A stretch of DNA of 64,000 nt from a bacterium (GTDB lineage: Bacteria; SAR324; NAC60-12): positions 480,001 through 544,000 of the forward strand of contig CBDDTI010000746.1 in NCBI GenBank assembly GCA_965233585.1, in the 5' to 3' direction. Every line of letters starts with the position of its first letter. Position 1 is the stretch's first letter. Shown piece by piece: positions 5,812 through 61,618 of this stretch. The notes beneath the pieces were generated by a model. That model searched no databases and was not told the origin of the DNA. It worked only from the letters and a program-made list of their open reading frames with translations. The position numbers and the translations under genes were made by a program.

Positions 5812-8151
5812 TCAAGGACCAAATGCCCAAACATCGTTTTTGCAAATTCCATCCCATTCGTCCTCTCCTCCCAGCACCCAGAGTTTGCCATTGAACACGA
5901 CACTGCTGTGAGAACCCCTTTCTGACCAGTCTGCATTGCCAGTGACTTTTGTCCAATTCGCTCCATCAGAAGAACTCCAAACATCGTTTTTTCCAACTAA
6001 ATTTCTGTCAAATCCTCCCAGCACCCAGAGTTTGCCATTGAACACGACACTGCTGTGATCATCCCTTGCTGACCAGCCTGCATTGCTAGTGACTTTTGTC
6101 CAATTCGCTCCATCAGAAGAACTCCAAACATCGTTTTTGTAACTTCCGCCCTCTCCTCCCAGCACCCAGAGTTTGCTATTGAACACGACACTGGTGTGAA
6201 CCCACCTTTCTGACCAGCCTGCATCGCTAGTGACTTTTGTCCAATTCGCTCCATCAGAAGAACTCCAAACATCGTTTTTGTAACTTCCATCCCCTCCTCC
6301 CAGCACCCAGAGTTTGCCATTGAACACGACACTGCTGTGACCAGACCTTGCTGACCAGCCTGCATTGCTAGTGACTTTTGTCCAATTCGCTCCATCAGAA
6401 GAACTCCAAACATCGTTTTTGCGACTTCCGTCATATCCTCCCAGCACCCAGAGTTTGCCATTGAACACGACACTGGTGTGATCATTCCTTGCTGACCAGC
6501 CTGCATTGCTAGTGACTTTTGTCCAATTCGCTCCATCAGAAGAACTCCAAACATCGTTTTTGCGACTTCCGTCATATCCTCCCAGCACCCAGAGTTTGCC
6601 ATTGAACACGACACTGCTGTGATCATTCCTTGCTGACCAGCCTGCATTGCCAGTGACTTTTGTCCAATTCGCTCCATCAGAAGAACTCCAAACATCGTTT
6701 TTGTTACTTCCGTCATCTCCTCCCAGCACCCAGAGTTTGCCATTGAACACGACACTGCTGTGATTCCACCTTGCTGACCAGTCTGCATTGCCAGTGACTT
6801 TTGTCCAATTCGCTCCATCAGAAGAACTCCAAACATCGTTTTTGCGACCTCCGCCATATCCTCCCAGCACCCAGAGTTTGCCATTGAACACGACACTGCT
6901 GTGATCATCCCTTGCTGACCAGCCTGCATTGCTAGTGACTTTTGTCCAATTCGCTCCATCAGAAGAACTCCAAACATCGTTTTTGTTACTTCCATCCCAT
7001 CCTCCCAGCACCCAGAGTTTGCCATTGAACACGACACTGCTGTGATCATTCCTTGCTGACCAGCCTGCATTGCTAGTGACTTTTGTCCAATTCGCTCCAT
7101 CAGAAGAACTCCAAACATCGTTTTTGTAACTTCCATCCCATCCTCCCAGCACCCAGAGTTTGCCATTGAACACGACACTGGTGTGATCATTCCTTGCTGA
7201 CCAGCCTGCATTGTTAGTGACTTTTGTCCAATTCGCTCCATCAGAAGAACTCCAAACATCGTTTTTGTCATCTCCGTCATCTCCTCCCAGCACCCAGAGT
7301 TTGCCATTGAACACGACACTGGTGTGCTCATTCCTTGCTGACCAGCCTGCATTGCTAGTGACTTTTGTCCAATTCGCTCCATCAGAAGAACTCCAAACAT
7401 CGTTTTTGTTACTTCCGTCATATCCTCCCAGCACCCAGAGTTTGCCATTGAACACGACACTGCTGTGATCATTCCTTGCTGACCAGCTTTCTTCGATTGG
7501 CTTCCAAGAGTATTTGGAGATGTCAATGCTTGGAGGTTTTAGTTTGGCAGCAATGGCTTGGTCATAGCAAGCCCAGCCTGATGCAGGCGTGTTGCCTGAT
7601 GCTTTGACACGGACGCACAACTTGCCTGACGCAATGGCATCGTCTCCAAAACTAAAAGGGCTGGTGCAGTCTGTGATTTGTCCAGAGGTGGCACTTGTGC
7701 CATGAGTGGTGCATTCGTAACTCTTGCCTGAATCAGTAGCAAACGTTAAGGTTCTGCCTGAAATAGACAAGCTGGAAGGTTTGGCTAGTTTTTGAGGTGT
7801 TGGGGTCGTAGCAGCAATCGCTTGGTCATAGCAACTCCAATCAGAAGCAGGCGTGTTGCCTGATGCTTTGACACGGACGCACAACTTGCCTGACGCAATG
7901 GCGTTGTCTCCAAAACTAAAAGGGCTGGTGCAGTCTGTGATTTGTTCAGAAGTGGCACTTGTGCCATGAGTGGTGCATTCGTAACTCTTGTCTGAATCAG
8001 TGGCAAAGGTGAGCGTTCTGCCTGAAATAGACAAGCTGGAAGGTTTGGCTAGTTTTTGAGGTGTTTCTTTTTTGTTTTCTTTGTTGTTGCCAGAAGAACT
8101 CCCACCACTACTAGACGAACTTCCATCATCTTCTGCACAAGCAGAAATCAC
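5812..8151 (-). CDS. Surface lipoprotein with two 4-Cys stalk modules and 12 Kelch-like repeats; true start uncertain (signal peptide lies upstream of GTG 8151)
   Basis: ISAC lipobox, Ser/Gly linker, 47-aa repeats with R..H.sVVFNGKLWVLGG and W motifs; the frame stays open upstream as KSHFFKLFLIPLTIFV. Confidence 0.85.
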   Translation of the reverse strand: MISACAEDDGSSSSSGGSSSGNNKENKKETPQKLAKPSSLSISGRTLTFATDSDKSYECTTHGTSATSEQITDCTSPFSFGDNAIASGKLCVRVKASGNTPASDWSCYDQAIAATTPTPQKLAKPSSLSISGRTLTFATDSGKSYECTTHGTSATSGQITDCTSPFSFGDDAIASGKLCVRVKASGNTPASGWACYDQAIAAKLKPPSIDISKYSWKPIEESWSARNDHSSVVFNGKLWVLGGYDGSNKNDVWSSSDGANWTKVTSNAGWSARNEHTSVVFNGKLWVLGGDDGDDKNDVWSSSDGANWTKVTNNAGWSARNDHTSVVFNGKLWVLGGWDGSYKNDVWSSSDGANWTKVTSNAGWSARNDHSSVVFNGKLWVLGGWDGSNKNDVWSSSDGANWTKVTSNAGWSARDDHSSVVFNGKLWVLGGYGGGRKNDVWSSSDGANWTKVTGNADWSARWNHSSVVFNGKLWVLGGDDGSNKNDVWSSSDGANWTKVTGNAGWSARNDHSSVVFNGKLWVLGGYDGSRKNDVWSSSDGANWTKVTSNAGWSARNDHTSVVFNGKLWVLGGYDGSRKNDVWSSSDGANWTKVTSNAGWSARSGHSSVVFNGKLWVLGGGDGSYKNDVWSSSDGANWTKVTSDAGWSERWVHTSVVFNSKLWVLGGEGGSYKNDVWSSSDGANWTKVTSNAGWSARDDHSSVVFNGKLWVLGGFDRNLVGKNDVWSSSDGANWTKVTGNADWSERGSHSSVVFNGKLWVLGGEDEWDGICKNDVWAFGP
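5815..7485 (-). repeat. Intragenic tandem repeat, about 141 bp x 12
   Basis: Near-identical units such as cccagcacccagagtttgccattgaacacgacact recurring every 141 bp. Confidence 0.95.
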
Positions 8152-8282
8152 AAAAATCGTGAGCGGAATGAGAAAAAGTTTGAAGAAGTGGGATTTGAGT
8201 AGGTGAGAGAATTTTTTGACGAAAACGCAGAGAATTTGGCATTTTTGTCTTGACTTTTGAAAAAGCTGATTTAGCCTATATA

Positions 8283-8450
8283 GATTGCGGATTGCGGATT
8301 GCGGATTGCGGATTGCGGATTGCGGATTGCGGATTGCGGATTGCGGATTGCGGATTGCGGATTGCGGATTGCGGATTGCGGATTGCGGATTGCGGATTGC
8401 GGATTGCGGATTGCGGATTGCGGATTGCGGATTGCGGATTGCGGATTGCG
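8283..8450. repeat. Heptamer microsatellite (GATTGCG)x24
   Basis: 168 bp perfect tandem repeat upstream of the Kelch lipoprotein gene. Confidence 0.97.
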
Positions 8451-8616
8451 GATAAATTTTGCATATCGTGATTTTTTTGAGTTCATAAAAATATGATTTA
8501 AATCATCATCTTAAAAAGCAAGGAAAAAAGAGGCTTATTGTAAATGAGTGAAAAACGAAATGCAAGCACTTTTTTACAAAATTCATAAAAAATGGAGTGA
8601 TTGGGAAGAAAAAAAG

Positions 8617-9085
8617 AGATTGCGGGGCAAGGTGAGCCATGACTAAGTTCAAGTTGAGCGATGACGAAAAAACACGCTTGCAAAGTTTCTCAGTCATTCC
8701 GTGCTTTTCTTAGTCATTCCGCACTTGATGCGGAATCTCAAAAACAAAAGAAGATTGCGGGTCAAGCCCGCAATGACAAAAAGATAAGACTGCAACACTC
8801 ACGTCATTCTGTGCTTGATGCGGAATCTATCAGCAAACCAAGCACAGATTCCTACATGACTAGATTCCTGCCCCTGTTTTCACAGGGGTGACGTTCTTTC
8901 GCTCCGAATGACAATAGTTGCCATTCTGTGCTTGACACGGAATCTCAAAACGAGGAGCCGTTTAGGAAAAAAGTGAGATTGCGGGTCAAGCCCGCAATGA
9001 CAGGTTAGTTGCCATTCCGCACTTGATGCGGAATCTCAAAAAAAGTGAACGAAGAAAAAAAGAGATTGAGGGTCAAGGTGAGCAA
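8617..9085. repeat. REP-like repeat cluster
   Basis: Same GTCAT-footed palindromes as 4820-5745. Confidence 0.88.
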
Positions 9086-9105
9086 ACATTTTTCAAAACG
9101 AGTGT

Positions 9106-9726
9106 TCAAGATTCTACTGCCTCCAGTTGGAGCTGCAACGAAGCAGGCGTGATGACCTGTAGTTCTCCTGCCTGTTCTTGAAAAAGATAAATGTCTTGCT
9201 CTTCTGCCTCACTAATGAGTTCGTCATAAAAGACTTCTCCCGCCAAACCGCAATGGATCTCATAATCTTGATACCTTGGAAACAATTTAGGAAAGGTCTC
9301 TTTCTGCCGAAGCACTTGTTGGAAATCTTTGACATGAGGTTTGCGTTTGACTTCTATCAAAAGCAAATGTTTTGTTTTGCTGAACAACACAAGATCGTAT
9401 TGAGCCGTGATGCCATTTTTCCCTTTGAGGTTTTGTTCCACTTCGTCGTAGCGAATGCCTCCAATTTCAATGAAACCATTTTTTTCTATAACCTGTTCAG
9501 CAGAACGAAACAGACGATTTTCTAAAATTTCTGACGTATTGCTGATGAAGTTTTCCATCTGCTTCACACCTCGCATCATGCTGGCAACTGCTGGTCCGAG
9601 TTCCTGAAATTGCAAAGTGGTTTCTTCTTGGCGTTTTTTCAACTCCTGCATACCTTTGGCATTTTCTTCTTGCTGCTTTGCAACTCTATCTAAAGTTGCC
9701 CAAATTTCATCAAATTGTTCACTCAT
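9106..9726 (-). CDS. Coiled-coil plus PD-(D/E)XK nuclease-like protein (DUF3782-like), paralog of 61894-62526
   Basis: Q/E-rich N-terminal coiled coil; E...QYDLVL...LIEVK motif. Confidence 0.7.
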   Translation of the reverse strand: MSEQFDEIWATLDRVAKQQEENAKGMQELKKRQEETTLQFQELGPAVASMMRGVKQMENFISNTSEILENRLFRSAEQVIEKNGFIEIGGIRYDEVEQNLKGKNGITAQYDLVLFSKTKHLLLIEVKRKPHVKDFQQVLRQKETFPKLFPRYQDYEIHCGLAGEVFYDELISEAEEQDIYLFQEQAGELQVITPASLQLQLEAVES

Positions 9727-9844
9727 CTTGCTCTTCTAAAAATTCAAAGTTATAAAATCAAAACGTCTAGTCTAGCAGACTTTTGAAAAAAGAAGGGAAG
9801 GCAAAGCATAGAAAAAAACAAAAGAAGGACAAGATGAAAAAAGA

Positions 9845-10560
9845 CAGATTGCGGAACAAGGTGAGCAATGACCAAATGCAACCCAGCAAAATCCTCTCGT
9901 CATTCTGCACTTGATGCGGAATCTTAAATTCCCTCCGTCATTCCGTGCTTGACACGGAATCTATCACCAAACCAAGCACAGATTCCTACATGACTGGATT
10001 CCTGCCCCTGTTTTCACAGGGGGGACGTTCTTTCGCTCCGAATGACAGCTATTGTCATTCCGCATTTGATGCGGAATCTCTTTTTTTTCTAAACTACCCC
10101 GTCAAATCTTAACGGATTTGCCACCCCTTCACTGAAGGGGAATTGAAATTGAGAAAAGTGAAGAAAGAAAGTTGAGATTGCGGGTCAAGCCCGCAATGAC
10201 GAAAAGATAAGACTGCAACACTCCCGTCATTCCGCACTTGATGCGGAATCTCAAAAACAAAAGGAGATTCCTGCTTCCGCTCCGAATGACAAAGAAGGAG
10301 GCAAGACCGCAACACTCACGTCATTTCGTGCCTCTCTTTGCCATTCCGCACTTGATGCGGAATCTCAAAAACAAAAGGAGATTGCGGGTCAAGCCCGCAA
10401 TGACGGCTTTCAAGGTGAGCAATGACAGGGAAGTGAGAAAAAGACAAGAGAGATTGCGGGTCAAGGTGAGCAATGACTAAGTTCAAGGTCAGCAATGACG
10501 AAAAGACAAGTCTGCCAACTCTCTTCGTCATTCCGTGCTTGATGCGGAATCTCAAAAAAA
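9845..10560. repeat. REP-like repeat cluster
   Basis: Same palindromic families. Confidence 0.88.
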
Positions 10561-10698
10561 GTGGTTGTTGGCAAAAAGACAAGGGGGGTTGCTGGCAAGC
10601 GAAGCCTGACGGGGTCGTTTGGAAAAAAAGAGATGGCGGGTCAAGCCAGCGGTAGGTCTTTCAATGACACTAAAAGGGCATTGAAAGAGGCTACCGAG

Positions 10699-10833
10699 CT
10701 ACGGCTCTACCATGTCTTCTTGATGTTGAGAAGACAGGCGGTATCCTGCATTTTTTCCCATCTGATAGGCGATATTTGCAGTGACAGCAATCAAAACGGC
10801 GATTGCCACAATATGAAGGGCAAGAAGCATCAT
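10699..10833 (-). CDS. Small (44 aa) single-TM hypothetical protein, not in the ORF track
   Basis: MMLLALHIVAIAVLIAVTANIAYQMGKNAGYRLSSQHQEDMVEP*, 30 bp downstream of the TerB-like gene on the same strand. Confidence 0.45.
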   Translation of the reverse strand: MMLLALHIVAIAVLIAVTANIAYQMGKNAGYRLSSQHQEDMVEP

Positions 10834-10863
10834 AAAATACTTTTTGATGGAAAGATGAAAAGT

Positions 10864-11277
10864 TTAAGTAACACTTTGTTGGAGACGTTGAAGCATTTCA
10901 TTGACCTTGCTTTTAATAAATGACGCATCAACAACTTGGTCTTTAAAATAGGGGTGTGTGTCAGGGTCAATAGACAAATGTTTCATGATTTTTTTGATAA
11001 ATTGTTGTTCTACCTCACAAAGTTCCCCATCTGCACAGGCAGTGAACACGAGGACATCAACCAAAAGTTGTTTACTTTCTTTGGACTTTAAGCCTTCCAA
11101 AGCATGAGACAAAGAAATTTTTTGCTGGATTTGCTGTAATTCATCTTGACTCACTTGAAGTGCTTTTAGCATAGCTTTCAATGCGTCAACTTCTGGTTGA
11201 TCCAACTTCCCATCTGTCTTTGCAACATGACGGGCAATGAAAATGATACTTAAAAATTGTTCTCTAGTGATACTCAT
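10864..11277 (-). CDS. TerB-like (tellurite resistance family) protein
   Basis: Twice-repeated A..DG.l...E motif (AKTDGKLDQPE, ACADGELCEVE). Confidence 0.75.
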   Translation of the reverse strand: MSITREQFLSIIFIARHVAKTDGKLDQPEVDALKAMLKALQVSQDELQQIQQKISLSHALEGLKSKESKQLLVDVLVFTACADGELCEVEQQFIKKIMKHLSIDPDTHPYFKDQVVDASFIKSKVNEMLQRLQQSVT

Positions 11278-11364
11278 TTCAAGATATAATTGATTTTTTA
11301 CTTAACACCTGATGTAAACTTCGTTATCATCTTCTGGCACAGAGTTTTTTTGCCTTCACAATCC

Positions 11365-13692
11365 ATGAGTCACCCAGTTTACCCTATTTTACTAATCGGT
11401 CAAGATGCCCAGACACAAAATTGGGTAGAGCGTCTTGCTAAGGAGCAATTTAGTATCTCTAAAAGTAAAACGGCAATTGGGGGCTTGCAAAAAGCCATCA
11501 ACACACCAATCAGCCTGATTCTCTTTGACAGCGACCGCCAAGAATTGAGTGCAAATGAATTTTTGCAACAAATGCAAGACATCAATCTTTCTATCCCTGT
11601 CATTACTCTCACCTCCAGTTCAGACGTCGCAAAGTCCAATAGCACCAACGGTGTGTTACACAAACCTTTTTCCCAGACAGATCTTTACAACCATCTCAGC
11701 AATTTTTTTAAGAAACAAGAGGAGACGATTCGCAAAGAAGTTCAGAAAGGGAAACCCTTACCTGATATCAAAGAATCTGAAATCATGGTCGGTTTTCGCA
11801 AGCCTGCAAACATTTACAAGATTAGCAAGCAAGGAATGGTCTTGTCTTTACCTACTGAAATTCGTCCAGACTCCAGACTTCTTTTCAAAGGCGCCCCTCT
11901 TTATGAGCAGATGGGGATTGACAACATTAAGTCTAACCGTATTGAAATGCTTGTCACAGAATGCGCACCCACCATTCAAAATCGCTTCAAAGTCGTCTCA
12001 AAATTCACCGATACAGGCTTCACCGATTCAGAAAAGAAAATACTTGATGAATACATTGAACGATACGCCAGTAAGGTTGCTCTCGCCTCAAAAAATCATG
12101 GCAGTATTTTAATTTTTGGCACAGGAGAAGGCTATTACGATTCTTACCGCTTTTATTTTGAAGGAAGTCCGTATAAATTTCAATTTGCAGGCACTCCTGA
12201 AAAGGTTTTAAGTGAGATTCAATCCTCCACCATTGATGTTTTGATCATTGACTCTGACAATTTAGATGCCCGCATTACATCACTTCTTGATTCGTTTCAA
12301 AAACAAAAAAGGAGGCTTCCTATCATTTTGGTCACAGGGGATCAAAATCAAAATGCCATCGCTCAGGTGGCAACTTTAGTCCAAGACCTCATTATCAAGC
12401 CAATCAACGGAAAAATGTTGCTCCAACGTCTGGCAAAAGTTCGGAAACGTTGGGAGTTTGAAGAGCAGGTGCAAAAAAAAATTGGAGCAAGTGTTGGGGT
12501 GAGTATTGAGACCAAAATCTTGGTGGTTTTTAAGGATCAAGCAGTCATTCAAAGAATCAGAAATAATGGATTATTGCTTTACAAAGAACAAGCCATTATT
12601 CCAACAACAACTATCTACTTTCGTGCGAATGAGTTTTTTCAGCTGCTCAGCGTTCAGTCCAAAAATATGACGCATATTGAGTTAGAAGTTGTCAGCTGCC
12701 AATATGATTTAGAAAAAAAACTTTATCGCGTCATTGCAAATTTTAAAGAAATTAGCGACCACTTGGTGCAAGCAGTCCAAGACTTTTTAAGTGGAAAACT
12801 GATGCCCGGTGCAACGCTTGCTGAACCTGAAACGACTACGCAAGAAGACATGCTTGATGCCATTCCTGATGCACCAGATACACCAGACGAAAAAGCAAAA
12901 GAGGAAGACTCTGGAGGGTGGCTGTTCTTGAAAGAACCAGAAGAAGAAGAGGAAGACTCTGGAGGTTGGCTGTTCTTGAAAGAACCAGAAGAAGAGGAGG
13001 AAGAAGATGACCCTATACTTCCACCACCGCCCCAAGAACAGGAAGCATCAAATTTAGAGACGATACAACATGAACAGCCAGAAGGCGTGAAATGGGACGT
13101 CAGCCAAAAAGAAGAGTCAGAACCTGAAGAAGCCCCCTTTATCATTCCCCCAAAACCCAAAATACAACAATACTCTCTTTCAGACCTTGTCAGGGAGCTT
13201 CCTCAATGCCAAGTGCAAAGTCTTAAAAGTCTTCATTTTAGCGATGAGTTTTTCTCAGAAGATGAAGACTCTTACACTTCACAGCTCAAGATGCAGCGTG
13301 GACAAATTCATGCTCACAAAGCTAAACTGCAACAAGTTGCCCAAAAATACCTTGGCTCCAATCCAGATTTTTACAAACAGCGGTTCAATACCAAATTAGT
13401 AACACAAGAACGTGCGGCAGTGCTTCATGTGTTTAGTGAGCAACTGGAATGTTTCATGTTGATTGGTGCAACACTCAAAACTGTCCCAAAAGGCATGGGA
13501 ATTTCTGCAAGTTTGGCTGAAGACTCTTATGAATACACTCCTTATTACTTGATTGGAGTCCCCAAACCGCAACATGTGGACTTTGGAGTTGCTTTTGAAA
13601 CGAGGTCGTTCATGGACCGTGAAGTCGCCATCTGCTCACCAACCAACAAAGACGTTGGTCAAATTTTACCAGACCTCTTGAAATTGCTATGA
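11365..13692 (+). CDS. Multidomain response-regulator-like protein (two receiver domains, acidic linker)
   Basis: LILFD...IPVITLT...HKPF and VLIID...LPIILVTG...IKPI receiver patterns; Glu/Pro-rich linker. Confidence 0.7.
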   Translation: MSHPVYPILLIGQDAQTQNWVERLAKEQFSISKSKTAIGGLQKAINTPISLILFDSDRQELSANEFLQQMQDINLSIPVITLTSSSDVAKSNSTNGVLHKPFSQTDLYNHLSNFFKKQEETIRKEVQKGKPLPDIKESEIMVGFRKPANIYKISKQGMVLSLPTEIRPDSRLLFKGAPLYEQMGIDNIKSNRIEMLVTECAPTIQNRFKVVSKFTDTGFTDSEKKILDEYIERYASKVALASKNHGSILIFGTGEGYYDSYRFYFEGSPYKFQFAGTPEKVLSEIQSSTIDVLIIDSDNLDARITSLLDSFQKQKRRLPIILVTGDQNQNAIAQVATLVQDLIIKPINGKMLLQRLAKVRKRWEFEEQVQKKIGASVGVSIETKILVVFKDQAVIQRIRNNGLLLYKEQAIIPTTTIYFRANEFFQLLSVQSKNMTHIELEVVSCQYDLEKKLYRVIANFKEISDHLVQAVQDFLSGKLMPGATLAEPETTTQEDMLDAIPDAPDTPDEKAKEEDSGGWLFLKEPEEEEEDSGGWLFLKEPEEEEEEDDPILPPPPQEQEASNLETIQHEQPEGVKWDVSQKEESEPEEAPFIIPPKPKIQQYSLSDLVRELPQCQVQSLKSLHFSDEFFSEDEDSYTSQLKMQRGQIHAHKAKLQQVAQKYLGSNPDFYKQRFNTKLVTQERAAVLHVFSEQLECFMLIGATLKTVPKGMGISASLAEDSYEYTPYYLIGVPKPQHVDFGVAFETRSFMDREVAICSPTNKDVGQILPDLLKLL

Positions 13693-15569: not shown

Positions 15570-15636
15570 AAAAATTTGAAAAATCAAAATGATTTTCATC
15601 TCCTTGCTTTTTTAACCTCATTTTTAATGGAATTTT

Positions 15637-16764: not shown

Positions 16765-16828
16765 AGGCAACATTCTGCGACACCCTGATTGTTTAACTTG
16801 TCTCTTCAGTTGACTGACTTGGTCAAGG

Positions 16829-21396: not shown

Positions 21397-22261
21397 GGTC
21401 ATTGCGGGCTTGACCCGCAATCTTCCTTTTCGTCATTTTGGACTTGTTCTTCTTTTGTCATTGCGGGACCTGACCCGCAATCTCTCTTTTTTAAATGAAC
21501 AAATCAATGTCAAGAGCATGAACAAAAAGATAGCGTCAGATTATAACGAATCTCTTAGCACTTCACAACACTTGACTCCATTCAATCAAACCTTCCTACG
21601 AAGGCAGAAACCCAGTCATGTAGGAATCTGTGCTTGGTTTAAGATAGATTCCGCATCAAGTGCGGAATGACTACGACCGTCATTCCTGCGAAAGCAGGAA
21701 TCCATGCGATGTTGACGATGGATTCCGCATCAAGTGCGGAATGACTGAGAGGTTTTGTAGGCGTGTCTTTTCGTCATTGCTCACCTTGCCCCGCAATCTC
21801 CCTTGTCTTTTTCTCAACAACTCCTTTTTTTGAGATTCCGCATCAAGTGCGGAATGACGGAGAGGTTTTGTAGGCGTGTCTTTTCGTCATTGCTTACCTT
21901 GACCCGCAATCTCCATTTTTTTGAGATTCTGCATCAAGTGCGGAATGACTACGACCGTCATTCCTGCGAAGGCAGGAATCTATCCTCCAACTGCTGATAG
22001 ATTCCGCATCAAGCACTACAATGACGGAAGGAGTTTGCTCACTTTGAAAACCGTCATTGCGGGACCTGACCCGCAATCTCATTCTTCTTAAAACACAGGA
22101 CAAACTTGGGTTTGTCCCTACGTTGTCATTGCGTGCTTGACCCGCAATCTCTCTTGTTTTCTATCCGCGTCATCGCTCACTTTGAAAACTGTCATTGCTG
22201 ACCTTGACCCGCAATCTCATTCTTCTTAAAATACATGACAAACACTTGGGTTTGTCCCTAC
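21397..22261. repeat. REP-like repeat cluster
   Basis: Same palindromic families, including locally duplicated blocks (21651-21800 vs 21834-21990). Confidence 0.88.
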
Positions 22262-22483
22262 TCTGCCACCTGCTTGCTTTTCATCATTTTTCTGTTTTTT
22301 GACTTCCCAATCTGCTTACTTTTCAGATTTTTTTGAAAAATCTTAAAAAATCTTCAAAATTCCTTAATTTTTTTCAAACTACCTTCACACCTTCATCTTT
22401 CCTGACTTCCCAAACGCATTCTTTCTTCAAAACAGCCAAAAAAATTCCTTAAAAACCAAAAAAATTCCCTCAAGTCCTGAGTC

Positions 22484-22520
22484 TTGACTTGGTTTTTTTT
22501 TGTACGTGCATAATGCACGT
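22484..22520 (+). promoter_or_regulatory. Sigma70-like promoter with T9 tract in the spacer and a palindrome over the -10 box
   Basis: TTGACT-19 bp-CATAAT; acgtgca-taa-tgcacgt. Confidence 0.55.
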
Positions 22521-22676
22521 TTTGGTTTTTCGCAAAACTCCCATCTTGAAAATAAATGAAGGTTTCATTTCAAGAGGAGAGTTTTTCGTGTGACAGCACC
22601 CTAAAGGGTGCTGTTGTGTTGTTGGTTTTTAATTTTTTCTCAATCTTGTTCAATTTTGTTTAATAGGTAGGTTTTT

Positions 22677-24554
22677 ATGCAAAAGTTCATCAATCGTTGT
22701 TTTGTTCATTTGGCATCTGTTGTCAAACCTTCTGTTGTCCAGACAGGTGTTTGCCTGCTGTGCATCACGACTCTCTTTGCCTGCAGTAGTGACGATGGTG
22801 GTGTGTCCACGGTGACCGTCACAGAAAAAGTAGTGCCACCAAGCACTCCGAGTGAAGTGAAAACGAGCGAGGTCAAAGCCAGCAGTGTCAAGGTCAGCTG
22901 GTTGCCTTCAGCAGATTCAGATGGTCAAGTGGAAGGTTATGAAGTCTCTTACAAGACAAGTAGCGGGTCATGGACTGGCACACAAACCACCACGCAAACC
23001 AGTCTGATTGTGTCAGGATTACAGCCTGAAACCAGCTACACTTTTCGTGTTCGTGCCAAAGATGATGAGGGAGACTGGAGTCCTTACCAACAAAGCTCTG
23101 CTGTCAAGACTGCACCCAACGCACCAACTTCTCTTGCTATTTCAGGCAGAACGCTCACCTTTGCCACCACTTCAGGCAAGAGTTACGAATGCACCACGCA
23201 TGGCACAAGTGCCACTGCCGCACAAATCACAAACTGCACCAGCCCTTTTCGCTTTGGAGATGATGCCATTGCTAAAGACAACCTTTGCGTTCGTGTCAAA
23301 GCATCTGGCACTCCTGCTTCTGATTGGGCTTGTTACGCACAAGCGATTTTTAAGAAAGTCTTGACTAAACAATGGTCCAAACTGCTTGGCAGTAGCAATT
23401 CAGATTATGGAAGAGGAGTGAGTGTGGATTCAGCAGGCAATGTGTATGTGACAGGAAACTCTCATGGAAATTTTGATGGACATACCAATTCAGGAGGTTA
23501 TGACATGTTTTTAGTGAAGTATGACAGTTCAGGTAATAAGAAGTGGTCTAAACTGCTTGGCAGTAGCGATTCTGATTATGGATATGGAGTGAGTGTGGAT
23601 TCAGCAGGCAATGTTTATGTGACAGGATACTCTTGGGGAAATTTTGATGGACACAGCAGTTCAGGAGGTTATGACATGTTTTTAGTCAAGTATGACAGTT
23701 CAGGTAATAAGAAGTGGTCTAAACTGCTTGGCGGTAGCAATTCAGATTATGGAGAAGGAGTGAGTGTGGATTCTTCAGGCAATGTTTACGTGACAGGAGA
23801 ATCTTTGGGAAATTTTGATGGACACAGCAATTCGGGAAGTTTTGACATGTTTTTAGTGAAGTATGACAGTTCAGGTAATAAGAAGTGGTCTAAATTGCTT
23901 GGTACTAGCAGTTGGGATTTAGGAGAAGGAGTGGTTGTGGATTCTGCAGGCAATGTGTATGTGACAGGATACTCTGGGGGAAATTTTGATGGACACAGCA
24001 ATTCAGGAGGTTGGGACATGTTTTTAGTGAAATATGACCCTTCAGGTAATAAGAAGTGGTCTAAATTGCTTGGCAGTAGCAGAAATGATGAAGGAAGAGG
24101 AGTGAGTGTGGATTCTGCAGGAAATGTTTATGTCACAGGAAGATCTGAAGGAAACTTTGATGGACACAGCAATTCAGGAAGTGATATGTTTTTAGTGAAG
24201 TATGACAGTTCAGGAGTGAAGAAGTGGTCTAAACTGTTTGGCAGTAGCAGTTGGGATTCAGGAAGAGGAGTGAGTGTGGATTCAGCAGGCAATGTGTATG
24301 TGACAGGAATATCTGAAGGAAATTTTGATGGACACAGCTATTCAGGAAGTGATGATATGTTTTTAGTGAAGTATGACAGTTCAGGTAATAAGAAGTGGTC
24401 TAAACTGCTTGGCACTACAGATTATGATAGAGGATATGGAGTGAGTGTGGATTCAGCAGGCAATGTTTACGTCACAGGAAGCTCTTGGGGAAATTTTGAT
24501 GGACATGTCAATTCAGGAGATAGGGACATGTTTTTAATCAAGTTTGGGAGGTAG
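22677..24554 (+). CDS. Surface lipoprotein: FN3 + 4-Cys module + 7 SBBP-like beta-propeller repeats (copy A)
   Basis: LFAC lipobox; FN3 motif GLQPETSYTFRVRAKD; 57-aa repeats VSVDSAGNVYVTG...DMFLVKYDSSG. Confidence 0.9.
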   Translation: MQKFINRCFVHLASVVKPSVVQTGVCLLCITTLFACSSDDGGVSTVTVTEKVVPPSTPSEVKTSEVKASSVKVSWLPSADSDGQVEGYEVSYKTSSGSWTGTQTTTQTSLIVSGLQPETSYTFRVRAKDDEGDWSPYQQSSAVKTAPNAPTSLAISGRTLTFATTSGKSYECTTHGTSATAAQITNCTSPFRFGDDAIAKDNLCVRVKASGTPASDWACYAQAIFKKVLTKQWSKLLGSSNSDYGRGVSVDSAGNVYVTGNSHGNFDGHTNSGGYDMFLVKYDSSGNKKWSKLLGSSDSDYGYGVSVDSAGNVYVTGYSWGNFDGHSSSGGYDMFLVKYDSSGNKKWSKLLGGSNSDYGEGVSVDSSGNVYVTGESLGNFDGHSNSGSFDMFLVKYDSSGNKKWSKLLGTSSWDLGEGVVVDSAGNVYVTGYSGGNFDGHSNSGGWDMFLVKYDPSGNKKWSKLLGSSRNDEGRGVSVDSAGNVYVTGRSEGNFDGHSNSGSDMFLVKYDSSGVKKWSKLFGSSSWDSGRGVSVDSAGNVYVTGISEGNFDGHSYSGSDDMFLVKYDSSGNKKWSKLLGTTDYDRGYGVSVDSAGNVYVTGSSWGNFDGHVNSGDRDMFLIKFGR

Positions 24555-24652
24555 GTTGCCAAGAGAAAGGTTGTAGTGGAGTTGGAAGGAGTGTTTGGAG
24601 TAGTATTTTGTCTTCCAGCAAGTGTTGTCATACTTGCTGTGAAAAGTCATCA

Positions 24653-25097
24653 GTCATTGCGGGACCTGACCCGCAATCTCATTCTTCTTAAAACGCAGGA
24701 CAAACACACGGGTTTGTCCCTACATTGACCTGCGGGACCTAACCCGCAATCTCCTTTTTTTTGAGATTCCGCATCAAGTGCGGAATGACGGTTTGCTCTT
24801 TTTCCTATTCCCTCTTCATTGCTCACTTTAAAAAACCGCCATTGCGGGCGTGTCTTGGTCATTGCTCACCTTGACCCGCAATCTCCTTTTTTTCATTGTG
24901 TTTGCATTCTTTTTTTTGAGATTCAGCGTCAAGCACTCAAGTGAAGTGAGGGTTTGGCTGGGTTGCCTTTGATCATTCTTGCCTCTTTCTTTGTCATTCC
25001 TGCGAAAGCAGGAATCTATCCTCTAAATGCTGATGGATTCCGCATCAAGTGCGGAATGACGGGAGCATTATTGCTCACCTTGAAAAATGTCATTGCT
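24653..25097. repeat. REP-like repeat cluster
   Basis: Same palindromic families. Confidence 0.85.
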
Positions 25098-25209
25098 AAT
25101 AGGATTAGCCAGTGAGTCTTTTAGCAAAGATTTAATTTCAGAAGCAAAAGCCAACCAAATTTATTTGGTACAAGAAAGAGCAGGAGTGATTCAAATCATC
25201 GCTTCTTGA
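25087..25209 (+). pseudogene. C-terminal remnant of the PD-(D/E)XK-like paralog family
   Basis: Translates to IGLASESFSKDLISEAKANQIYLVQERAGVIQIIAS*, aligning with CGLAGEVFYDELISEAEEQDIYLFQEQAGELQVIT of 9106-9726 and 61894-62526. Confidence 0.7.
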
Positions 25210-49358: not shown

Positions 49359-49363
49359 TGAAT

Positions 49364-50515: not shown

Positions 50516-50530
50516 CAGATTTGATTGGAA

Positions 50531-55257: not shown

Positions 55258-55347
55258 ATTGATTTGGAAAGATAAATTTGATTTTGTAGAATTTTTGATG
55301 ATGATTGATTTGTGTAATTACTATTATTTTATTTTTAGGAGTGGGTT

Positions 55348-55653
55348 ATGAGCATTACATTAAATTTGCCAATAAATATTGAGAATGCTTTGCTTGAAAA
55401 AGCAGAAGCAAAAAAACAAGATTTGGAGAGTGTTATTATTGAGTATTTAAATGATAAAATAAGTCATGATGTAAATGAGAGTTTAGATTTAAGAGGTATG
55501 CTTGTAGATGTGAGAAAAAGACTTGAAGAAGCTAAAAAAAGACCTAAAACAGATTTAGTATCAATGGTCGGTTCTGGAGTTCATTGTAGTAGTTTTAAGT
55601 CTATGGAAGAAGCAAATGATTTTATCAACGAATTAAGGAACGAATGGAGATAG
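55348..55653 (+). CDS. Putative antitoxin
   Basis: Small protein with RHH-like N-terminus, ending INELRNEW, overlapping the PIN gene; very AT-rich. Confidence 0.7.
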   Translation: MSITLNLPINIENALLEKAEAKKQDLESVIIEYLNDKISHDVNESLDLRGMLVDVRKRLEEAKKRPKTDLVSMVGSGVHCSSFKSMEEANDFINELRNEWR

Positions 55654-56087
55654 TTAAAAATCAAAGATATTATTTTGATTCAAACGTTTTTATATATTCT
55701 ATTGAAAAAATAGATAAGAATAAATCATCTATTGTGCAAGAGTTATTTGATTCTATTGTTAAAAATGATAGTCAGGTTATCACAAGTGAACTAACTTTAG
55801 GAGAATGTCTTGTAAAACCTAGAAAAGATAATAATATGTTACTTGAAACGTTATATGTAGATAGTATATTTAATAATAAAAATATTTTTCTTGAAAGCAT
55901 AGATATAGAAGTGTTGTTTTTAATGGCAGATATAAGAGCTAAAAATAATTTTAGAACTCCTGATGCAATTCATATAGCAACAGCAGTAAAAAATAATTGT
56001 TCTGCTATTTTGACGAATGATAAGCAGTTTAAAGCATTAGAAAATGAAGATATGAAAGTTTGGTATTTAGATGAATTATTAAAATAA
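55644..56087 (+). CDS. PIN-domain (VapC-like) toxin
   Basis: YFDSNVFIY, SELTLGE, RTPDAIHIATA, LTND. Confidence 0.9.
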   Translation: MEIVKNQRYYFDSNVFIYSIEKIDKNKSSIVQELFDSIVKNDSQVITSELTLGECLVKPRKDNNMLLETLYVDSIFNNKNIFLESIDIEVLFLMADIRAKNNFRTPDAIHIATAVKNNCSAILTNDKQFKALENEDMKVWYLDELLK

Positions 56088-56210
56088 ATGAACACTCAAA
56101 GGCAAAAAAATATCTATAAAAAATGGAAAAAATTATTTTGCGTTGTGTTGGAGAAATGATAGTAAATGATAGTAGAGGAATTGATTCAAAAAGCATTGAC
56201 ACAGTGAAAG

Positions 56211-56732: not shown

Positions 56733-56889
56733 TGAAACGTTCAACACATGAGTTTGAAACCATTTGAAACCAAATAAATTTGAAATGAACGAGACCAAAT
56801 GGTGATGTCATCGCCCGTCAGTTGCACTATAAAAAAATATTTGACCCACCAAACCCCAATCTATTGAACCACTGAAACAAGGAGTTATT

Positions 56890-58077
56890 ATGATAGAAGT
56901 CACCATTCCCAGCCCAGGAGAATCCATTACAGAAGTATCTATCGCCTCTTGGTACAAAGCCACCGGCGATGTTGTTAAAAAAGATGAAGTCATCTGTGAA
57001 ATAGAGTCAGACAAAGCCACTTTGCCCATCTCTGCAGCAGATTCAGGAACTTTAGAGATTTTGATTGCAGAGGGAGAAGATGCCAAAGTAGGCGACGTCC
57101 TTTGCAAAATTGACACAAGCCAGTCTGACACAAAAGAGGTTGCTGACACTTCTGCTGAAACCACTGAAAGTCAACCAAGTCAAGCAGAACCACAACAACA
57201 GCAACAACCCATAGCCTCACCTGCGGCACAAAAAATCATGGCAGAAACAGGGGCTTCAGTAGAACAAGGCACAGGAAAAGATGGACGCATCACCAAACAA
57301 GATGTTCTCCAAGCCCCCAAACCTGCTGTCAGCGAGCCAACTCAAATGCCAGCGGCTCAAGCCAGCCAGCCAATGGCTGAAGCCCCCAAGCGGCAAAAGA
57401 TGTCCCGCATGCGTCAAGCTATTTCGGCAAGACTTGTCAAAGTTAAAAATGAAACGGCGATGCTGACCACTTTTAATGAACTGGACATGAGTCAAATCAT
57501 GGCATTGCGTCAACGTTACAAAGACACCTTCCAAAAAACCCACGATGTCAAGTTGGGCTTCATGTCCTTTTTTACCAAAGCCTGTGCGATGGCATTACAA
57601 AAGTTTCCTATGGTGAATGCCATGATTGACGGCAATGAATTTGTCTTGTCTGATGCGGCTCATATTGGAATTGCTGTGAGTACTCCTAAAGGTTTAGTCG
57701 TGCCTGTCCTCAAGAATGCTGACCAAATGAGTCTTGCTGAAATTGAACGAGAGATTTTGAATCTTGCCCTCAAAGCACGGGACAACAAAATTTCTATTGA
57801 CGAGATGCAAGGGGGGACTTTTTCCATTACAAATGGAGGCGTGTTTGGCTCTATGCTTTCTACACCCATTCTCAATTCCCCTCAAAGTGCCATTTTGGGA
57901 ATGCACAACATTGTAGAACGTCCCGTTGCAGTAGAGGGACAAGTCGTCATCCGTCCTGTCATGTACCTTGCTCTTTCCTATGACCACCGAGTCATTGATG
58001 GTCGCGAATCGGTCAGTTTTCTTAAAACTGTGAAGGAATCCATTGAAGACCCTGCAAGAATGTTATTGGAAGTCTAA
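56890..58077 (+). CDS. sucB: Dihydrolipoamide succinyltransferase (E2)
   Basis: Lipoyl domain [30 protein letters not shown]. Confidence 0.97.
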
Positions 58078-58294
58078 ATTCAACGCTTCTGCCAGACTGA
58101 TGAATCAAAGTTTACAGACCTGCCTGTCAATCTTGTCCATAGCAGATTTGTCTGCTTTTTGAGTCATGGCAGAACTTGATTCAGAATCTCAAAAACAGAA
58201 GATGAGATTACGGGTCAATGCCGCAATGACGAAAAACAAGTCTTCATTTGATTCATCAGAGTTTTAAAACGATTTGGAGACTGAAGATTTACCC

Positions 58295-59020
58295 ATGACA
58301 ACGTTTGATATTCTGTACTTTGACAAACTTGACTCTACAAATACTCATCTGTTAGCAAATCCTGAACTGCTGAAACAAGATAGATTGGTGGTAGTGGCAG
58401 ACCATCAAACTCAAGGCAGGGGACGCATGAATCGTCAATTTTTGGCACTGGAGGAACAAAATTTGACCTTCTCCTTAGTCATTCACAGACAAATTCCTCC
58501 TGACAAAATTGGAATCTACTCTTTGCTTGCAGGGGTTGCAGTCTCTCAAACCTTGCAAACGCTTTACGGATTGCAAACTCATTTGAAGTGGCCCAACGAC
58601 GTCCTCATTCAAAATGCAAAAGTCTGTGGAATCTTGACCGAGTCTTCCAATCTTGCAAATGTGCTGGTCATGGGCATTGGAATCAATTGCTGTGGCTCTG
58701 GACAAGTTTACACCCAGCAATTCAACAGACCCATCACCACCATTGAAGAACACACCTCAAATCCTGTTGAGCGGGAAGTCCTCTTGACTGCCTTACTTCA
58801 AGAAATCCAACAACTTTTACAACAATGCCACCGAAAAAGCTCTGTCATTCTCAAGCGATGGCTCAAGCAAACTCAACAACTCCATCAAATGACCTCTGTC
58901 AAACAAGGTTCTGAAACCATTCAAGGAATGATGACAGGACTGACCGATGAAGGATTTTTAAAAATACGCTTGCTAAATGGCAAAGAACAAATCTGCTTTT
59001 CAGGAGAAACCTCTTTGTAA
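58295..59020 (+). CDS. birA: Biotin--protein ligase (no N-terminal HTH)
   Basis: DSTN, QTQGRGR, KWPND, KVCGIL.E. Confidence 0.92.
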   Translation: MTTFDILYFDKLDSTNTHLLANPELLKQDRLVVVADHQTQGRGRMNRQFLALEEQNLTFSLVIHRQIPPDKIGIYSLLAGVAVSQTLQTLYGLQTHLKWPNDVLIQNAKVCGILTESSNLANVLVMGIGINCCGSGQVYTQQFNRPITTIEEHTSNPVEREVLLTALLQEIQQLLQQCHRKSSVILKRWLKQTQQLHQMTSVKQGSETIQGMMTGLTDEGFLKIRLLNGKEQICFSGETSL

Positions 59021-59044
59021 AAAACATCTGAAAACCTCCCTCCT

Positions 59045-59311
59045 GTCATGGCTCACCTTGACACGCAATCTCTAAACAACCGTCATGGCACACTCTGAAC
59101 TTAGTCATTACTCACCTTGACCCGCAATCTCTCTTGTTTTCTATCCGCGTCATTGCTGACCTTGAAAAAAGTCATTGCGGGACCTGACCCGCAATCTCAT
59201 CTTATTTTTTGAGATTCCGTGTCAAGCACGGAATGACAGAGGAATTTGCTCACCTTGACCCGCAATCTCATTCTTCTTAAAACACAGGACAAACACTTGG
59301 GTTTGTCCCTA
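59045..59311. repeat. REP-like repeat cluster
   Basis: Same palindromic families; partly collinear with 22135-22261. Confidence 0.85.
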
Positions 59312-59533
59312 CTCTGCCACCTGCTTGCTTTTCATCATTTTTCTGTTTTTTGACTTCCCAATCTGCTTACTTTTCAGATTTTTTTGAAAAATCTTCAAAA
59401 CTTTTTAAATTTTTTAAATTTTTTTCAAACTACCTTCACACCTTCATCTTTCCTGACTTCCCAAAGACATTCTTTTGACAAAAAATCTTCAAAATTCCTT
59501 AAAAACCAAAAAAATCTCCTCAAATCCTGAGTC

Positions 59534-59569
59534 TTGACTTGGTTTTTTTTGTACGTGCATAATGCTCGT
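59534..59569 (+). promoter_or_regulatory. Sigma70-like promoter with T8 tract in the spacer
   Basis: TTGACT-18 bp-CATAAT; palindrome has one mismatch (acgtgca-taa-tgctcgt). Confidence 0.55.
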
Positions 59570-59725
59570 TTTGGTTTTTCGCAAAACTCCCATCTTGAAA
59601 ATAAATGAAGGTTTCATTTCAAGAGGAGAGTTTTTCGTGTGACAGCACCCTAAAGGGTGCTGTTGTGTTGTTGGTTTTTAATTTTTTCTCAATCTTGTTC
59701 AATTTTGTTTAATAGGTAGGTTTTT

Positions 59726-61618
59726 ATGCAAAAGTTCATCAATCGTTGTTTTGTTCATTTGGCATCTGTTGTCAAACCTTCTGTTGTCCAGACAGGTGTT
59801 TGCCTGCTGTGCATCACGACTCTCTTTGCCTGCAGTAGTGACGATGGTGGTGTGTCCACGGTGACCGTCACAGAAAAAGTAGTGCCACCAAGCACTCCGA
59901 GTGAAGTGAAAACGAGCGAGGTCAAAGCCAGCAGTGTCAAGGTCAGCTGGTTGCCTTCAGCAGATTCAGATGGTCAAGTGGAAGGTTATGAAGTCTCTTA
60001 CAAGACAAGTAGCGGGTCATGGACTGGCACACAAACCACCACGCAAACCAGTCTGATTGTGTCAGGATTACAGCCTGAAACCAGCTACACTTTTCGTGTT
60101 CGTGCCAAAGATGATGAGGGAGACTGGAGTCCTTACCAACAAAGCTCTGCTGTCAAGACTGCACCCAACGCACCAACTTCTCTTGCTATTTCAGGCAGAA
60201 CGCTCACCTTTGCCACCACTTCAGGCAAGAGTTACGAATGCACCACGCATGGCACAAGTGCCACTGCCGCACAAATCACAAACTGCACCAGCCCTTTTCG
60301 CTTTGGAGATGATGCCATTGCTAAAGACAACCTTTGCGTTCGTGTCAAAGCATCTGGCACTCCTGCTTCTGATTGGGCTTGTTACGCACAAGCGATTTTT
60401 AAGAAAGTCTTGACTAAACAATGGTCCAAACTGCTTGGCAGTAGCAGTTATGATGAAGGAAAAGGAGTGAGTGTGGATTCTTCAGGAAATGTGTATGTGA
60501 CAGGATACTCTGGGGGAAATTTTGATGGACACAGCCGTTCAGGAGGTTGGGACATGTTTTTAGTGAAGTATGACAGTTCAGGTAATAAGAAGTGGTCTAA
60601 ATTGCTTGGCAGTAGCAGTGATGATAGAGGAAGAGGAGTGAGTGTAGATTCTTCAGGAAATGTCTATGTGACAGGATACTCTAAGGGAAATTTTGATGGA
60701 CACACCAATTCAGGAAGAGGGGACATATTTTTAGTGAAGTATGACCCTTCAGGCAACAAAAAGTGGTCTAAACTGCTTGGCAGTAGCAGTTTTGATTATG
60801 GAAAAGGAGTGAGTGTGGATTCAGCAGGGAATGTTTACGTGACAGGATACTCTGGGGGAAATTTTGATGGACATGTCAATTCAGGAAGTTGGGACATGTT
60901 TTTAGTGAAGTATGACAGTTCAGGTAATAAGAAGTGGTCTAAATTGCTTGGTACTAGCAGTTGGGATTTAGGAGAAGGAGTGGTTGTGGATTCTGCAGGC
61001 AATGTGTATGTGACAGGATACTCTGGGGGAAATTTTGATGGACACAGCAATTCAGGAGGTTGGGACATGTTTTTAGTGAAATATGACCCTTCAGGTAATA
61101 AGAAGTGGTCTAAACTGCTTGGCAGTAGCAGAAATGATGAAGGAAGAGGAGTGAGTGTGGATTCTGCAGGCAATGTGTATGTGACAGGAGAATCTGGGGG
61201 AAATTTTGATGGACACAGCAATTCAGGAAGTGATGATATGTTTTTAGTGAAGTATGACAGTTCAGGAGTGAAGAAGTGGTCTAAACTGTTTGACAGTAGC
61301 AGTTGGGATTCAGGAAGAGGAGTGAGTGTGGATTCAGCAGGCAATGTGTATGTGACAGGAATATCTGTAGGAATATCTGAAGGAAATTTTGATGGACACA
61401 GCAATTCAGGAAGTGATGATATGTTTTTAGTGAAGTATGACAGTTCAGGTAATAAGAAGTGGTCTAAACTGCTTGGCACTACAGATTATGATAGAGGATA
61501 TGGAGTGAGTGTGGATTCAGCAGGCAATGTTTACGTCACAGGAAGCTCTTGGGGAAATTTTGATGGACATGTCAATTCAGGAGATAGGGACATGTTTTTA
61601 ATCAAGTTTGGGAGGTAG
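59726..61618 (+). CDS. Surface lipoprotein: FN3 + 4-Cys module + 7 SBBP-like repeats (copy B)
   Basis: N-terminal ~238 aa identical to 22677-24554; loops differ mainly in blades 1-3. Confidence 0.9.
   Translation: MQKFINRCFVHLASVVKPSVVQTGVCLLCITTLFACSSDDGGVSTVTVTEKVVPPSTPSEVKTSEVKASSVKVSWLPSADSDGQVEGYEVSYKTSSGSWTGTQTTTQTSLIVSGLQPETSYTFRVRAKDDEGDWSPYQQSSAVKTAPNAPTSLAISGRTLTFATTSGKSYECTTHGTSATAAQITNCTSPFRFGDDAIAKDNLCVRVKASGTPASDWACYAQAIFKKVLTKQWSKLLGSSSYDEGKGVSVDSSGNVYVTGYSGGNFDGHSRSGGWDMFLVKYDSSGNKKWSKLLGSSSDDRGRGVSVDSSGNVYVTGYSKGNFDGHTNSGRGDIFLVKYDPSGNKKWSKLLGSSSFDYGKGVSVDSAGNVYVTGYSGGNFDGHVNSGSWDMFLVKYDSSGNKKWSKLLGTSSWDLGEGVVVDSAGNVYVTGYSGGNFDGHSNSGGWDMFLVKYDPSGNKKWSKLLGSSRNDEGRGVSVDSAGNVYVTGESGGNFDGHSNSGSDDMFLVKYDSSGVKKWSKLFDSSSWDSGRGVSVDSAGNVYVTGISVGISEGNFDGHSNSGSDDMFLVKYDSSGNKKWSKLLGTTDYDRGYGVSVDSAGNVYVTGSSWGNFDGHVNSGDRDMFLIKFGR

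Follow-up and report, generated by a model that had tools for sequence, protein, structure and literature searches.

The window under study is a 64,000-nt stretch (positions 480,001–544,000) of the 830-kb contig C746 (CBDDTI010000746.1) from GCA_965233585.1, a 12 Mb assembly; it contains three lipoprotein genes, here named A, B and C, each of which joins a lipobox to a stalk module with four cysteines (4-Cys stalk) and a β-propeller head (Table 1). A preliminary description, made from the sequence alone, had put forward these three open reading frames (ORFs) and their common design; all three are present where it placed them, and the design is borne out by Pfam matches, by the lipoboxes and by an alignment of 23 stalk copies. 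All three probably belong to a family of about 22 modular surface lipoproteins that is specific to this lineage; the propeller heads would carry a variable face shaped by selection, and expression would be gated by repeats.

Gene A matches the Kelch models Kelch_1 (PF01344; E 6e-71, 234 bits) and PF24681 (E 2e-91, 306 bits), both above the gathering score; genes B and C each match SBBP (PF06739) over seven stretches (E 2e-77 and 255 bits for gene B, E 7e-73 and 241 bits for gene C; cut-off 20.5), and fn3 is matched in both. The LipL53 equivalog model (NF047494) scores 281 bits with gene B and 269 bits with gene C, below its 400-bit cut-off, and the two are considered related to that family without being members. 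Tandem Repeats Finder delimits the arrays as 141 nt × 11.5 (93% matches) in gene A, beside the stalk repeat listed in Table 1, and as 171 nt × 6.9 in each of genes B and C. The lipoboxes, LFAC in genes B and C and ISAC in gene A, were located with a regular expression based on the PROSITE-type pattern and come after hydrophobic stretches. Gene C is a recent duplicate of gene B.

Table 1. Features of the three lipoprotein genes and their surroundings, in window coordinates
Feature	Position	Strand	Description
Gene A	5812..8151	-	779-aa ORF; Ser/Gly-rich linker, two stalk modules, 12 Kelch blades; ISAC lipobox at 5' end
Gene A Kelch blades	5815..7506	-	12 blades of 47 aa (141 nt) each; modeled as two six-bladed propellers
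Gene A stalks	7531..8052	-	two tandem 4-Cys modules; 264-nt repeat × 2
Gene A lipoprotein signal peptide	8137..8217	-	KKFSH...FVISAC; Cys codon 8137-8139
Gene A heptamer tract	8283..8451	-	perfect (CCGCAAT)24; Tandem Repeats Finder: 7-nt unit × 24.4 at 8283-8453
Gene A ATG1	8462..8464	-	sole canonical start codon able to reach the signal peptide
Gene A promoter-like sequence	8537..8565	-	TTGCAT-17 nt-TACAAT; consensus match only; kept in 3 of 5 cassettes read
Gene B promoter-like sequence	22484..22514	+	TTGACT-tgg-T9-gtacgtg-CATAAT; spacer 19
Terminator-like hairpin	22588..22619	+	14 pairs and a T run; in the leader of gene B
Gene B	22677..24554	+	625 aa; lipobox LFAC, FN3 (aa 56-136), one stalk, 7 SBBP blades
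Gene B stalk	23115-23372	+
Gene B SBBP blades	23373-24551	+
Gene C promoter-like sequence	59534..59563	+	TTGACT-tgg-T8-gtacgtg-CATAAT; spacer 18
Gene C	59726..61618	+	630 aa; lipobox LFAC, FN3, one stalk, 7 SBBP blades
Gene C stalk	60164-60421	+
Gene C SBBP blades	60422-61615	+
Cluster of repetitive extragenic palindromic (REP) hairpins	4900..5760	.	3' of gene A
Further REP clusters	8600-9100, 10000-11000, 21400-22300, 24650-25100, 59100-59350, 62550-62800
Nuclease-like paralog	9106..9726	-	206 aa; coiled coil and D...EVK motif; upstream of gene A
Nuclease-like remnant	25102..25206	+	35 aa, 54% identity, E 4e-4 (weak); downstream of gene B
Nuclease-like paralog	61894..62526	+	210 aa; 276 nt downstream of gene C

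The stalk module allows the paralogs to be collected. A tblastn search with the stalk returns 29–30 segments on four large bacterial contigs (C295, C745, C746 and C747; 2.78 Mb in total), which carry all of the features described here, and these segments lie within 22 stop-to-stop ORFs; a profile built from 23 copies finds 32 matches in this genome, so that the wider family anticipated by the preliminary description is recovered. The same profile has no match in 40 relatives, 24 of the same family and 16 of the same order. The members display varied N-terminal domains, 1–5 FN3 domains and 1–6 stalks, and their heads are of the Kelch, SBBP, RCC1-like or another propeller type, followed in some by a laminin-G-like tail. 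The stalk module is ~80 residues long, and cysteine is invariant, or nearly so, at four positions of its 23 aligned copies. No Pfam family matches the stalk at E ≤ 1 apart from a chance-level match, and no sequence match is found in the PDB; against 1.84 billion representative proteins the profile retrieves 511 at E ≤ 0.001, distant relatives hold 7–19 tandem copies, and in 10 proteins scanned the copies overlap Big_13, Ig_J, Y_Y_Y or CHB_HEX_C models. As judged from its sequence, the stalk is a spacer module of bacterial Ig-like type that has diverged and that probably holds two disulfides. The system was not recognized as a named one when first described; this holds for the combination of parts and for the 4-Cys stalk family, both of which are lineage-specific, but each component matches a known kind.

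The blades within a head were described as nearly identical in DNA except at a few fixed codons, and this is confirmed, with 7–10 such codons per blade. In gene A, 31 of the 47 codon columns are invariant over the 10 gapless blades, which hold a single synonymous variant (GAC/GAT) and have a mean pairwise DNA identity of 92%; the remaining variation clusters at codons 3, 11, 12, 14, 28, 29, 31 and 32 and changes the residue in every case. The variable columns of the 57-residue blades of genes B and C are 8, 9, 11, 13, 28, 30, 37, 38, 41 and 42; family-wide, columns 9, 11, 13, 30, 41 and 42 are the most variable in 51 blades of 10 genes (57-residue blades only; 54 were collected and 3 of other length dropped). 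Substitutions were counted by the Nei-Gojobori method, as proportions of synonymous (pS) and non-synonymous (pN) differences, over 9 internal blades of gene A with 7 codons (3, 11, 12, 28, 29, 31 and 32) in the variable class and 40 in the framework, and over 9 distinct 57-residue blades of genes B and C (from a set of 12, less 2 that differ in length and 1 duplicate). The framework of gene A has a pS of 0 (0 of 962.7 sites) and a pN of 0.016, and its variable codons have a pN of 0.38; in genes B and C the framework has a pS of 0.18 and a pN of 0.029, and the 10 variable codons have a pN of 0.48 (pS is not applicable to the variable codons of either set). Per site, replacement changes at the variable codons thus outnumber silent ones in the adjacent framework, as the preliminary description had expected. 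The variable codons encode Asp, Asn, Ser, Tyr, Gly, Trp and Arg in gene A and Ser, Tyr, Asn, Gly, Arg, Glu and Trp in genes B and C.

These counts bear on a simpler account, considered rather unlikely, under which the three genes encode ordinary repeat lipoproteins whose blades were recently amplified and whose loops drift without constraint, the repeats and REPs being by-products of a repeat-rich, poorly expressed region. Recently amplified propellers, with near-identical blades derived from a single blade, are common, are reported for all lineages, Kelch included, and often decay, frameshift disruption being frequent (Pereira and Lupas 2022; excerpts of PMC9218822). Neutral drift, however, cannot yield a pS of 0 over the 40 framework codons of 9 blades beside a pN of 0.38, nor a pN of 0.48 that exceeds a pS of 0.18; the share of Tyr and Trp, which together make up 20 of the 90 variable residues in genes B and C, also speaks against unconstrained loops.

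A targeted mutator writing the variable codons is a highly improbable source of the same pattern, whether a diversity-generating retroelement or an enzyme such as the nuclease-like protein acting with REP hairpins. The extreme contrast in gene A between an untouched framework and scrambled codons would fit such a mutator, as would the AAY-like majority form at several variable codons; third codon positions change too, however (AAT to TGG, TAT to GGG), unlike in adenine-only mutagenesis, and no template copy of a blade is found in the assembly. The sole reverse transcriptase (RT) on the four bacterial contigs is located 190 kb away in a type I restriction-modification locus; with no template and with changes that extend beyond adenines, a diversity-generating retroelement is largely ruled out. 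The RT, a 521-aa protein at C746:292500-297500, stands beside a type I restriction-modification specificity subunit, a RhuM-like gene and a PDDEXK_3 nuclease, and looks like a defense-island RT unrelated to the propeller genes.

Structures were predicted with AlphaFold2 from alignments of homologues; the model of the gene A blades has a mean pLDDT of 93.5 and a pTM of 0.58, and that of the gene B stalk and propeller a pLDDT of 89.5 and a pTM of 0.83. Foldseek aligns each half of the gene A model to the six-bladed Kelch domains of LZTR1, KLHL3 and the designed SAKe6, with target-normalized TM scores of 0.75–0.85 over ~280–310 residues, equal to one model half each; gene A is therefore predicted to have two six-bladed propellers. 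The gene B model matches the seven-bladed SBBP propeller of CylK at 32% identity. Faces were assigned from the DSSP strand order rather than from coordinates, successive loops of a four-stranded antiparallel blade being on alternate faces. Two loops hold the variable codons of gene A, one preceding strand 1 (SNAGWSARxxH) and one following the GG of strand 2, whereas the NG and SDGAN loops are constant; those of gene B are located in GSSxx, the first residues of the following strand and the long xSxGNFDGHxxSGxx loop, with DSAGN and DSSGN as the constant loops. In both models the variable codons are confined to the D-A and B-C loops and to the strand ends next to them; because only alternate loops vary, all variable codons are predicted to be on one propeller face, and the loop topology of these confident models agrees with the single variable face proposed earlier. 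In solved Kelch complexes that loop face is the ligand face. Each member would be pictured as a surface-exposed protein with a lipid anchor, FN3 and Ig-like 4-Cys spacers, and a β-propeller head that binds its ligand through one face.

The duplicated genes provide a view of how the heads may have diverged. No difference separates genes B and C over 159 nt upstream, over 721 nt of the ORF, or in blades 3 and 6. Blades 0–2 account for 69 of the 95 columns that differ; 46 of the 69 belong to variable codons, and the other 23 are framework sites with polymorphism from blade to blade. Since point mutation and selection cannot leave the remainder at zero, segments appear to have been exchanged, and the sequence pattern of the two genes is that of a recombination mosaic. 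It is proposed that heads arise through the recent amplification of single blades, that recombination between blades and between paralogs would keep the blades alike, and that selection would diversify the 7–10 loop codons per blade on the binding face.

Upstream of the gene A lipoprotein frame, the coding-strand order is promoter-like sequence, ATG1, 13 nt, (CCGCAAT)24, a 65-nt linker and the signal peptide with ISAC. The tract is free of stop codons in all frames; directly after it, TATATAGGCTAA stops two frames and leaves one open, and in the lipoprotein frame the stretch from the upstream stop to the lipobox offers no ATG, GTG or TTG. At 24 units ATG1 is out of frame (offset 1) and opens a 62-aa ORF; the loss of one unit or the gain of two would join it to 823 further codons, and because a unit of 7 nt stands between start codon and signal peptide, only one unit count in three is in frame. 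This cassette is found in front of five genes, with 24 units at gene A and 17, 9, 18 and 8 units at the others; ATG1, linker and signal peptide are conserved in all five, the 17-unit copy is in frame, and the other four need ±1 or 2 units. Four heptamers in a row occur in none of the 40 relatives, and a search for the 26-nt cassette linker gave no match in metagenome and genome contig collections, from which records of this genome may be excluded. The heptamer unit is identical to the 3' arm of the commonest REP hairpin (ATTGCGGG...CCCGCAAT); this suggests that the tract arose from a REP hairpin arm. A second, internal ATG (ATG2, ~8241) is one base out of frame with the gene A signal peptide and is in frame in the C295 cassette, which makes it a possible ancestral start; a homopolymer frameshift at this ATG was considered and dropped for the layout of ATG1 and tract.

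The preliminary description had assigned a slippage-prone tract to the 5' end of each gene; this is correct for the heptamers of gene A, but the T9 of gene B and the T8 of gene C stand in an upstream promoter-like spacer and not in the gene. The poly-T module is located ~165–180 nt upstream of the ATG of genes B and C. Its sequence, Tn-GTAC(G/T)TGCATA(A/G)T, has 21 copies in the assembly, all on bacterial contigs, with n = 8 in 3 copies, 9 in 2, 10 in 7, 11 in 2 and 12 in 7; at least 16 modules precede lipoprotein leaders of the stalk family or of FN3 relatives. The 2.78 Mb of bacterial contigs hold 25 A/T runs of at least 10 nt, 16 of which are within poly-T modules, and tract length differs in 6 of the 8 most similar module pairs (1–10 mismatches in 160 nt of flank). 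With TTGACT or TTGGCT as the -35 element the spacers measure 17–21 nt, and only two genes, gene C included, have spacers of 17–18 nt. In their sequence, the repeat tracts of genes A, B and C have the exact layout of contingency switches. Expression would be gated gene by gene by these simple-sequence repeats, the heptamer setting the frame in gene A and poly-T setting the spacing of the -35-like and -10-like hexamers in genes B and C and most paralogs; the population would then contain ON and OFF forms according to tract length. At C747:156519-157518 a heptamer cassette (8 units, - strand) and a poly-T module (T11, + strand) are found back to back within 700 nt and would drive divergent genes.

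The leaders that follow the poly-T modules (22515-22676 and 59564-59725; ~165 nt) are conserved in 16 aligned paralogs and have two helices in common, one of them the 14-pair terminator-like hairpin of Table 1, with 6 of 18 predicted pairs kept through changes on both sides. Rfam has no match at gathering score in the window, leader included. In this family the leader may serve for attenuation or for transcript stability.

The assembly is a mixed bin. Most of its other 743 contigs are small, and 9.2 Mb consists of non-bacterial small contigs; many of these look eukaryotic, with TTTAGGG telomere-type repeats at the end of C13 and more than 100 matches to retroelement reverse transcriptases. The marker-based contamination figure of 2% does not reflect the mixed bin; completeness is 92%. 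It is scarcely credible that misassembly of this bin produced the arrays or the duplication of genes B and C: although short-read contigs cannot span the arrays and the non-bacterial portion is large, the locus is in an 830-kb contig among intact housekeeping genes, the flanks of genes B and C differ, and the differences between the two genes are ordered and in frame. Four public sequencing runs of one study contain the locus, stored as fragmented contigs; these independent contigs match parts of the arrays and the unique junctions with 0–2 differences. A joint that skips 1209 nt within the Kelch array (three runs, depth 2–4) is not a whole number of blades and was rejected as an allele. The variant letters at 8176-8239 in a 2386-nt run contig (8 differences) most likely derive from a paralogous cassette.

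Several observations weigh against a selected, repeat-gated family. Variable loops occur in every propeller family, and the consensus of unrelated homologues likewise has 'x' at the variable columns; this coincidence with the variable columns of distant homologues is also expected of ordinary repeat lipoproteins. The OFF state of four of the five heptamer cassettes also fits decay, which again favors that account, and when ON, gene A would have ~80 residues ahead of the signal peptide, unusually many for an N-terminal extension. The promoter hexamers are identified by consensus match only; an alternative -35 element, formed of TTG and the first Ts, would move the optimum to T12-T13 and change the ON lengths, and assembled homopolymer lengths may be off by one. 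The run contigs over 4700-8282 are short (depth 2–7) and end inside the repeat arrays. The suggestion that the heads are diversified by recombination finds support in the B/C mosaic and in the framework differences of blades 0–2, but lacks a donor, as identity to blades 0–2 of gene B or gene C does not exceed 91.2% for any blade elsewhere in the assembly. Ordinary repeat lipoproteins, however, do not account for the retention of ATG1 in all five cassettes, nor for the concentration of long A/T runs in one conserved promoter-like module; the family of variable-face lipoproteins with repeat-gated expression is the favored explanation.

REP clusters had been described around the three genes, and 35 of the 36 hairpins in the window are indeed in their flanks. 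Hairpins of three kinds amount to 306 copies on the bacterial contigs, of which 83 are within 1 kb of the 22 family ORFs against 4.7 expected (18-fold). The duplicated unit of genes B and C (22125-24649 and 59171-61713) has REPs at its boundaries. Several family ORFs are truncated at REP insertions, as ordinary repeat lipoproteins in decay would be; three are cut by a REP at the same point of the stalk, after which a new lipoprotein start follows. The junctions, at C745:64867-65016, C745:228286-228435 and C747:470928-471077, are identical, the stalk being cut after ~50 residues by the REP and followed by MNMKFF...GGC, and this composite is itself duplicated. No Y1 (RAYT) transposase that would account for the REPs is found in the genome (assembly 92% complete).

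A same-strand PD-(D/E)XK-like paralog or remnant was said to accompany each gene; paralogs that are 80% identical are present at genes A and C, but gene B has a 35-residue remnant only, and the assignment to PD-(D/E)XK is weak. The protein matches HSDR_N at E 9e-4 and 19.5 bits, below the Pfam cut-off of 25.1, and CARF_PDDEXK models weakly (E 0.001–0.02); a language-model lead points to DUF3782/DUF8196/NERD clusters with a score of 0.94. The family comprises 36 tblastn segments in the genome, and 9 of its 10 database relatives are from this genome. On the big contigs, 7 of 33 segments are within 1.3 kb of a lipoprotein family gene, and 22 of 33 have a REP within 1 kb, against about one in four by chance. 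A tandem array of five diverged nuclease-like paralogs (33–43% identity) at C746:88543-93393, each with 4–5 REPs within 1 kb, is ~30 kb from the nearest stalk-family gene; this suggests an association of the nuclease-like family with REPs and not with the lipoprotein genes themselves. For a targeted mutator, the seven nearby copies and the REP enrichment in the flanks would be favorable points, and a nuclease assignment below family thresholds an unfavorable one.

It is quite improbable that the lipoprotein family, both kinds of switch, the REPs and the nuclease-like proteins work together as a single programmed system of diversity. Under that reading, each cell would display a changing subset of ~20 propeller receptors, and the nuclease would cut REP hairpins and provoke gene conversion, by which blades and whole modules would pass from one paralog to another; if true, this would be a bacterial counterpart, free of retroelements, to receptor repertoires that are built by recombination.

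Combinatorial ON/OFF display of variable surface lipoproteins is textbook knowledge for a few animal pathogens. The same design would now be seen in an uncultured environmental or host-associated bacterium, with folded propeller heads whose evolution resembles that of fungal immune receptors and with variable faces rich in Tyr, Trp, Ser, Gly, Asp and Arg. The Vlp proteins of Mycoplasma hyorhinis form a lipoprotein multigene family in which homopolymer indels in the promoter of each gene lead to independent ON/OFF expression, and their coding regions hold tandem repeats that are also variable (Citti and Wise 1995, as given in extracts of PMC10502178). On the basis of these extracts, the multigene lipoprotein family, the homopolymer tract in a promoter of each gene and the coding tandem repeats are shared with Vlp. 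The tract here, however, is poly-T of T8-T12 with switching deduced from layout; the variable part consists of folded β-propeller loops, whereas that of Vlp is a low-complexity repeat region; and the host is a diderm-type bacterium rather than a mollicute, in which one member uses a translational heptamer.

In fungal NLR proteins (HET-E/HET-D/NWD) the repeats of one gene are ~85% or more identical and are exchanged within and between paralogs, and a few positions in each repeat, on the interaction face, are under positive selection (Paoletti 2007 and Chevanne 2010, in excerpts of PMC4986451). High blade identity and an excess of non-synonymous change at few positions on one face are common to both systems; the fungal proteins, as they are presented in those excerpts, are cytoplasmic STAND NTPases with WD40, ANK or TPR repeats, whereas the proteins described here are exported Kelch or SBBP lipoproteins that have no NTPase. 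The propellers of PMC9218822 are similar in their near-identical amplified blades, with the Kelch lineage included; the excerpted text of that survey is without hypervariable positions, SBBP, paralog families or switch tracts, all of which are found here.

LipL53 of Leptospira is likewise a lipoprotein with a seven-bladed SBBP propeller, and 410 of the 466 profile positions are aligned; it differs in that the best score remains under the 400-bit cut-off, at 281, and in that FN3 and the 4-Cys stalk are additional in genes B and C. Translational contingency loci carry short repeats in the 5' coding region, such as CTCTT in opa of Neisseria and CAAT in lic1 of Haemophilus. The heptamer tract resembles these as a non-triplet repeat between the start codon and the mature protein whose unit number sets the frame; it differs in its 7-nt unit and in preceding the signal peptide rather than forming it, and the whole cassette of promoter, ATG, tract and signal peptide is copied before five genes.

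No paper that unites these features for SBBP or Kelch lipoproteins was found in the open full-text literature. What is new is the 4-Cys stalk family, its large number of members included, together with both portable switch cassettes and the link to REPs and to a private nuclease-like family. If the switches work, the locus would offer, in compact and natural form, a means to study how a bacterium handles a binder repertoire, a route to learning the ligands (host, prey, phage or polymer), and a model for how repeats are kept alike while one face diversifies without a reverse transcriptase. Both the heptamer cassette and the poly-T module are portable and open to direct testing in reporter fusions.

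The rest of the window contains ordinary chromosomal genes, including those for IleRS, UvrC, ferrochelatase, 2-oxoglutarate dehydrogenase and ABC transporters. In the public genome contig collection the IleRS has relatives of only 43–57% identity, spread over many phyla. At 55348-56087, between the 2-oxoglutarate dehydrogenase genes, a small ORF and an overlapping PIN-domain gene (E 7.5e-16) have the layout of a VapBC-type toxin-antitoxin pair. A 48-nt tandem repeat (12899-13004; 2.2 copies, 96% matches) is located within an 800-aa response-regulator-like ORF at 11290-13692.

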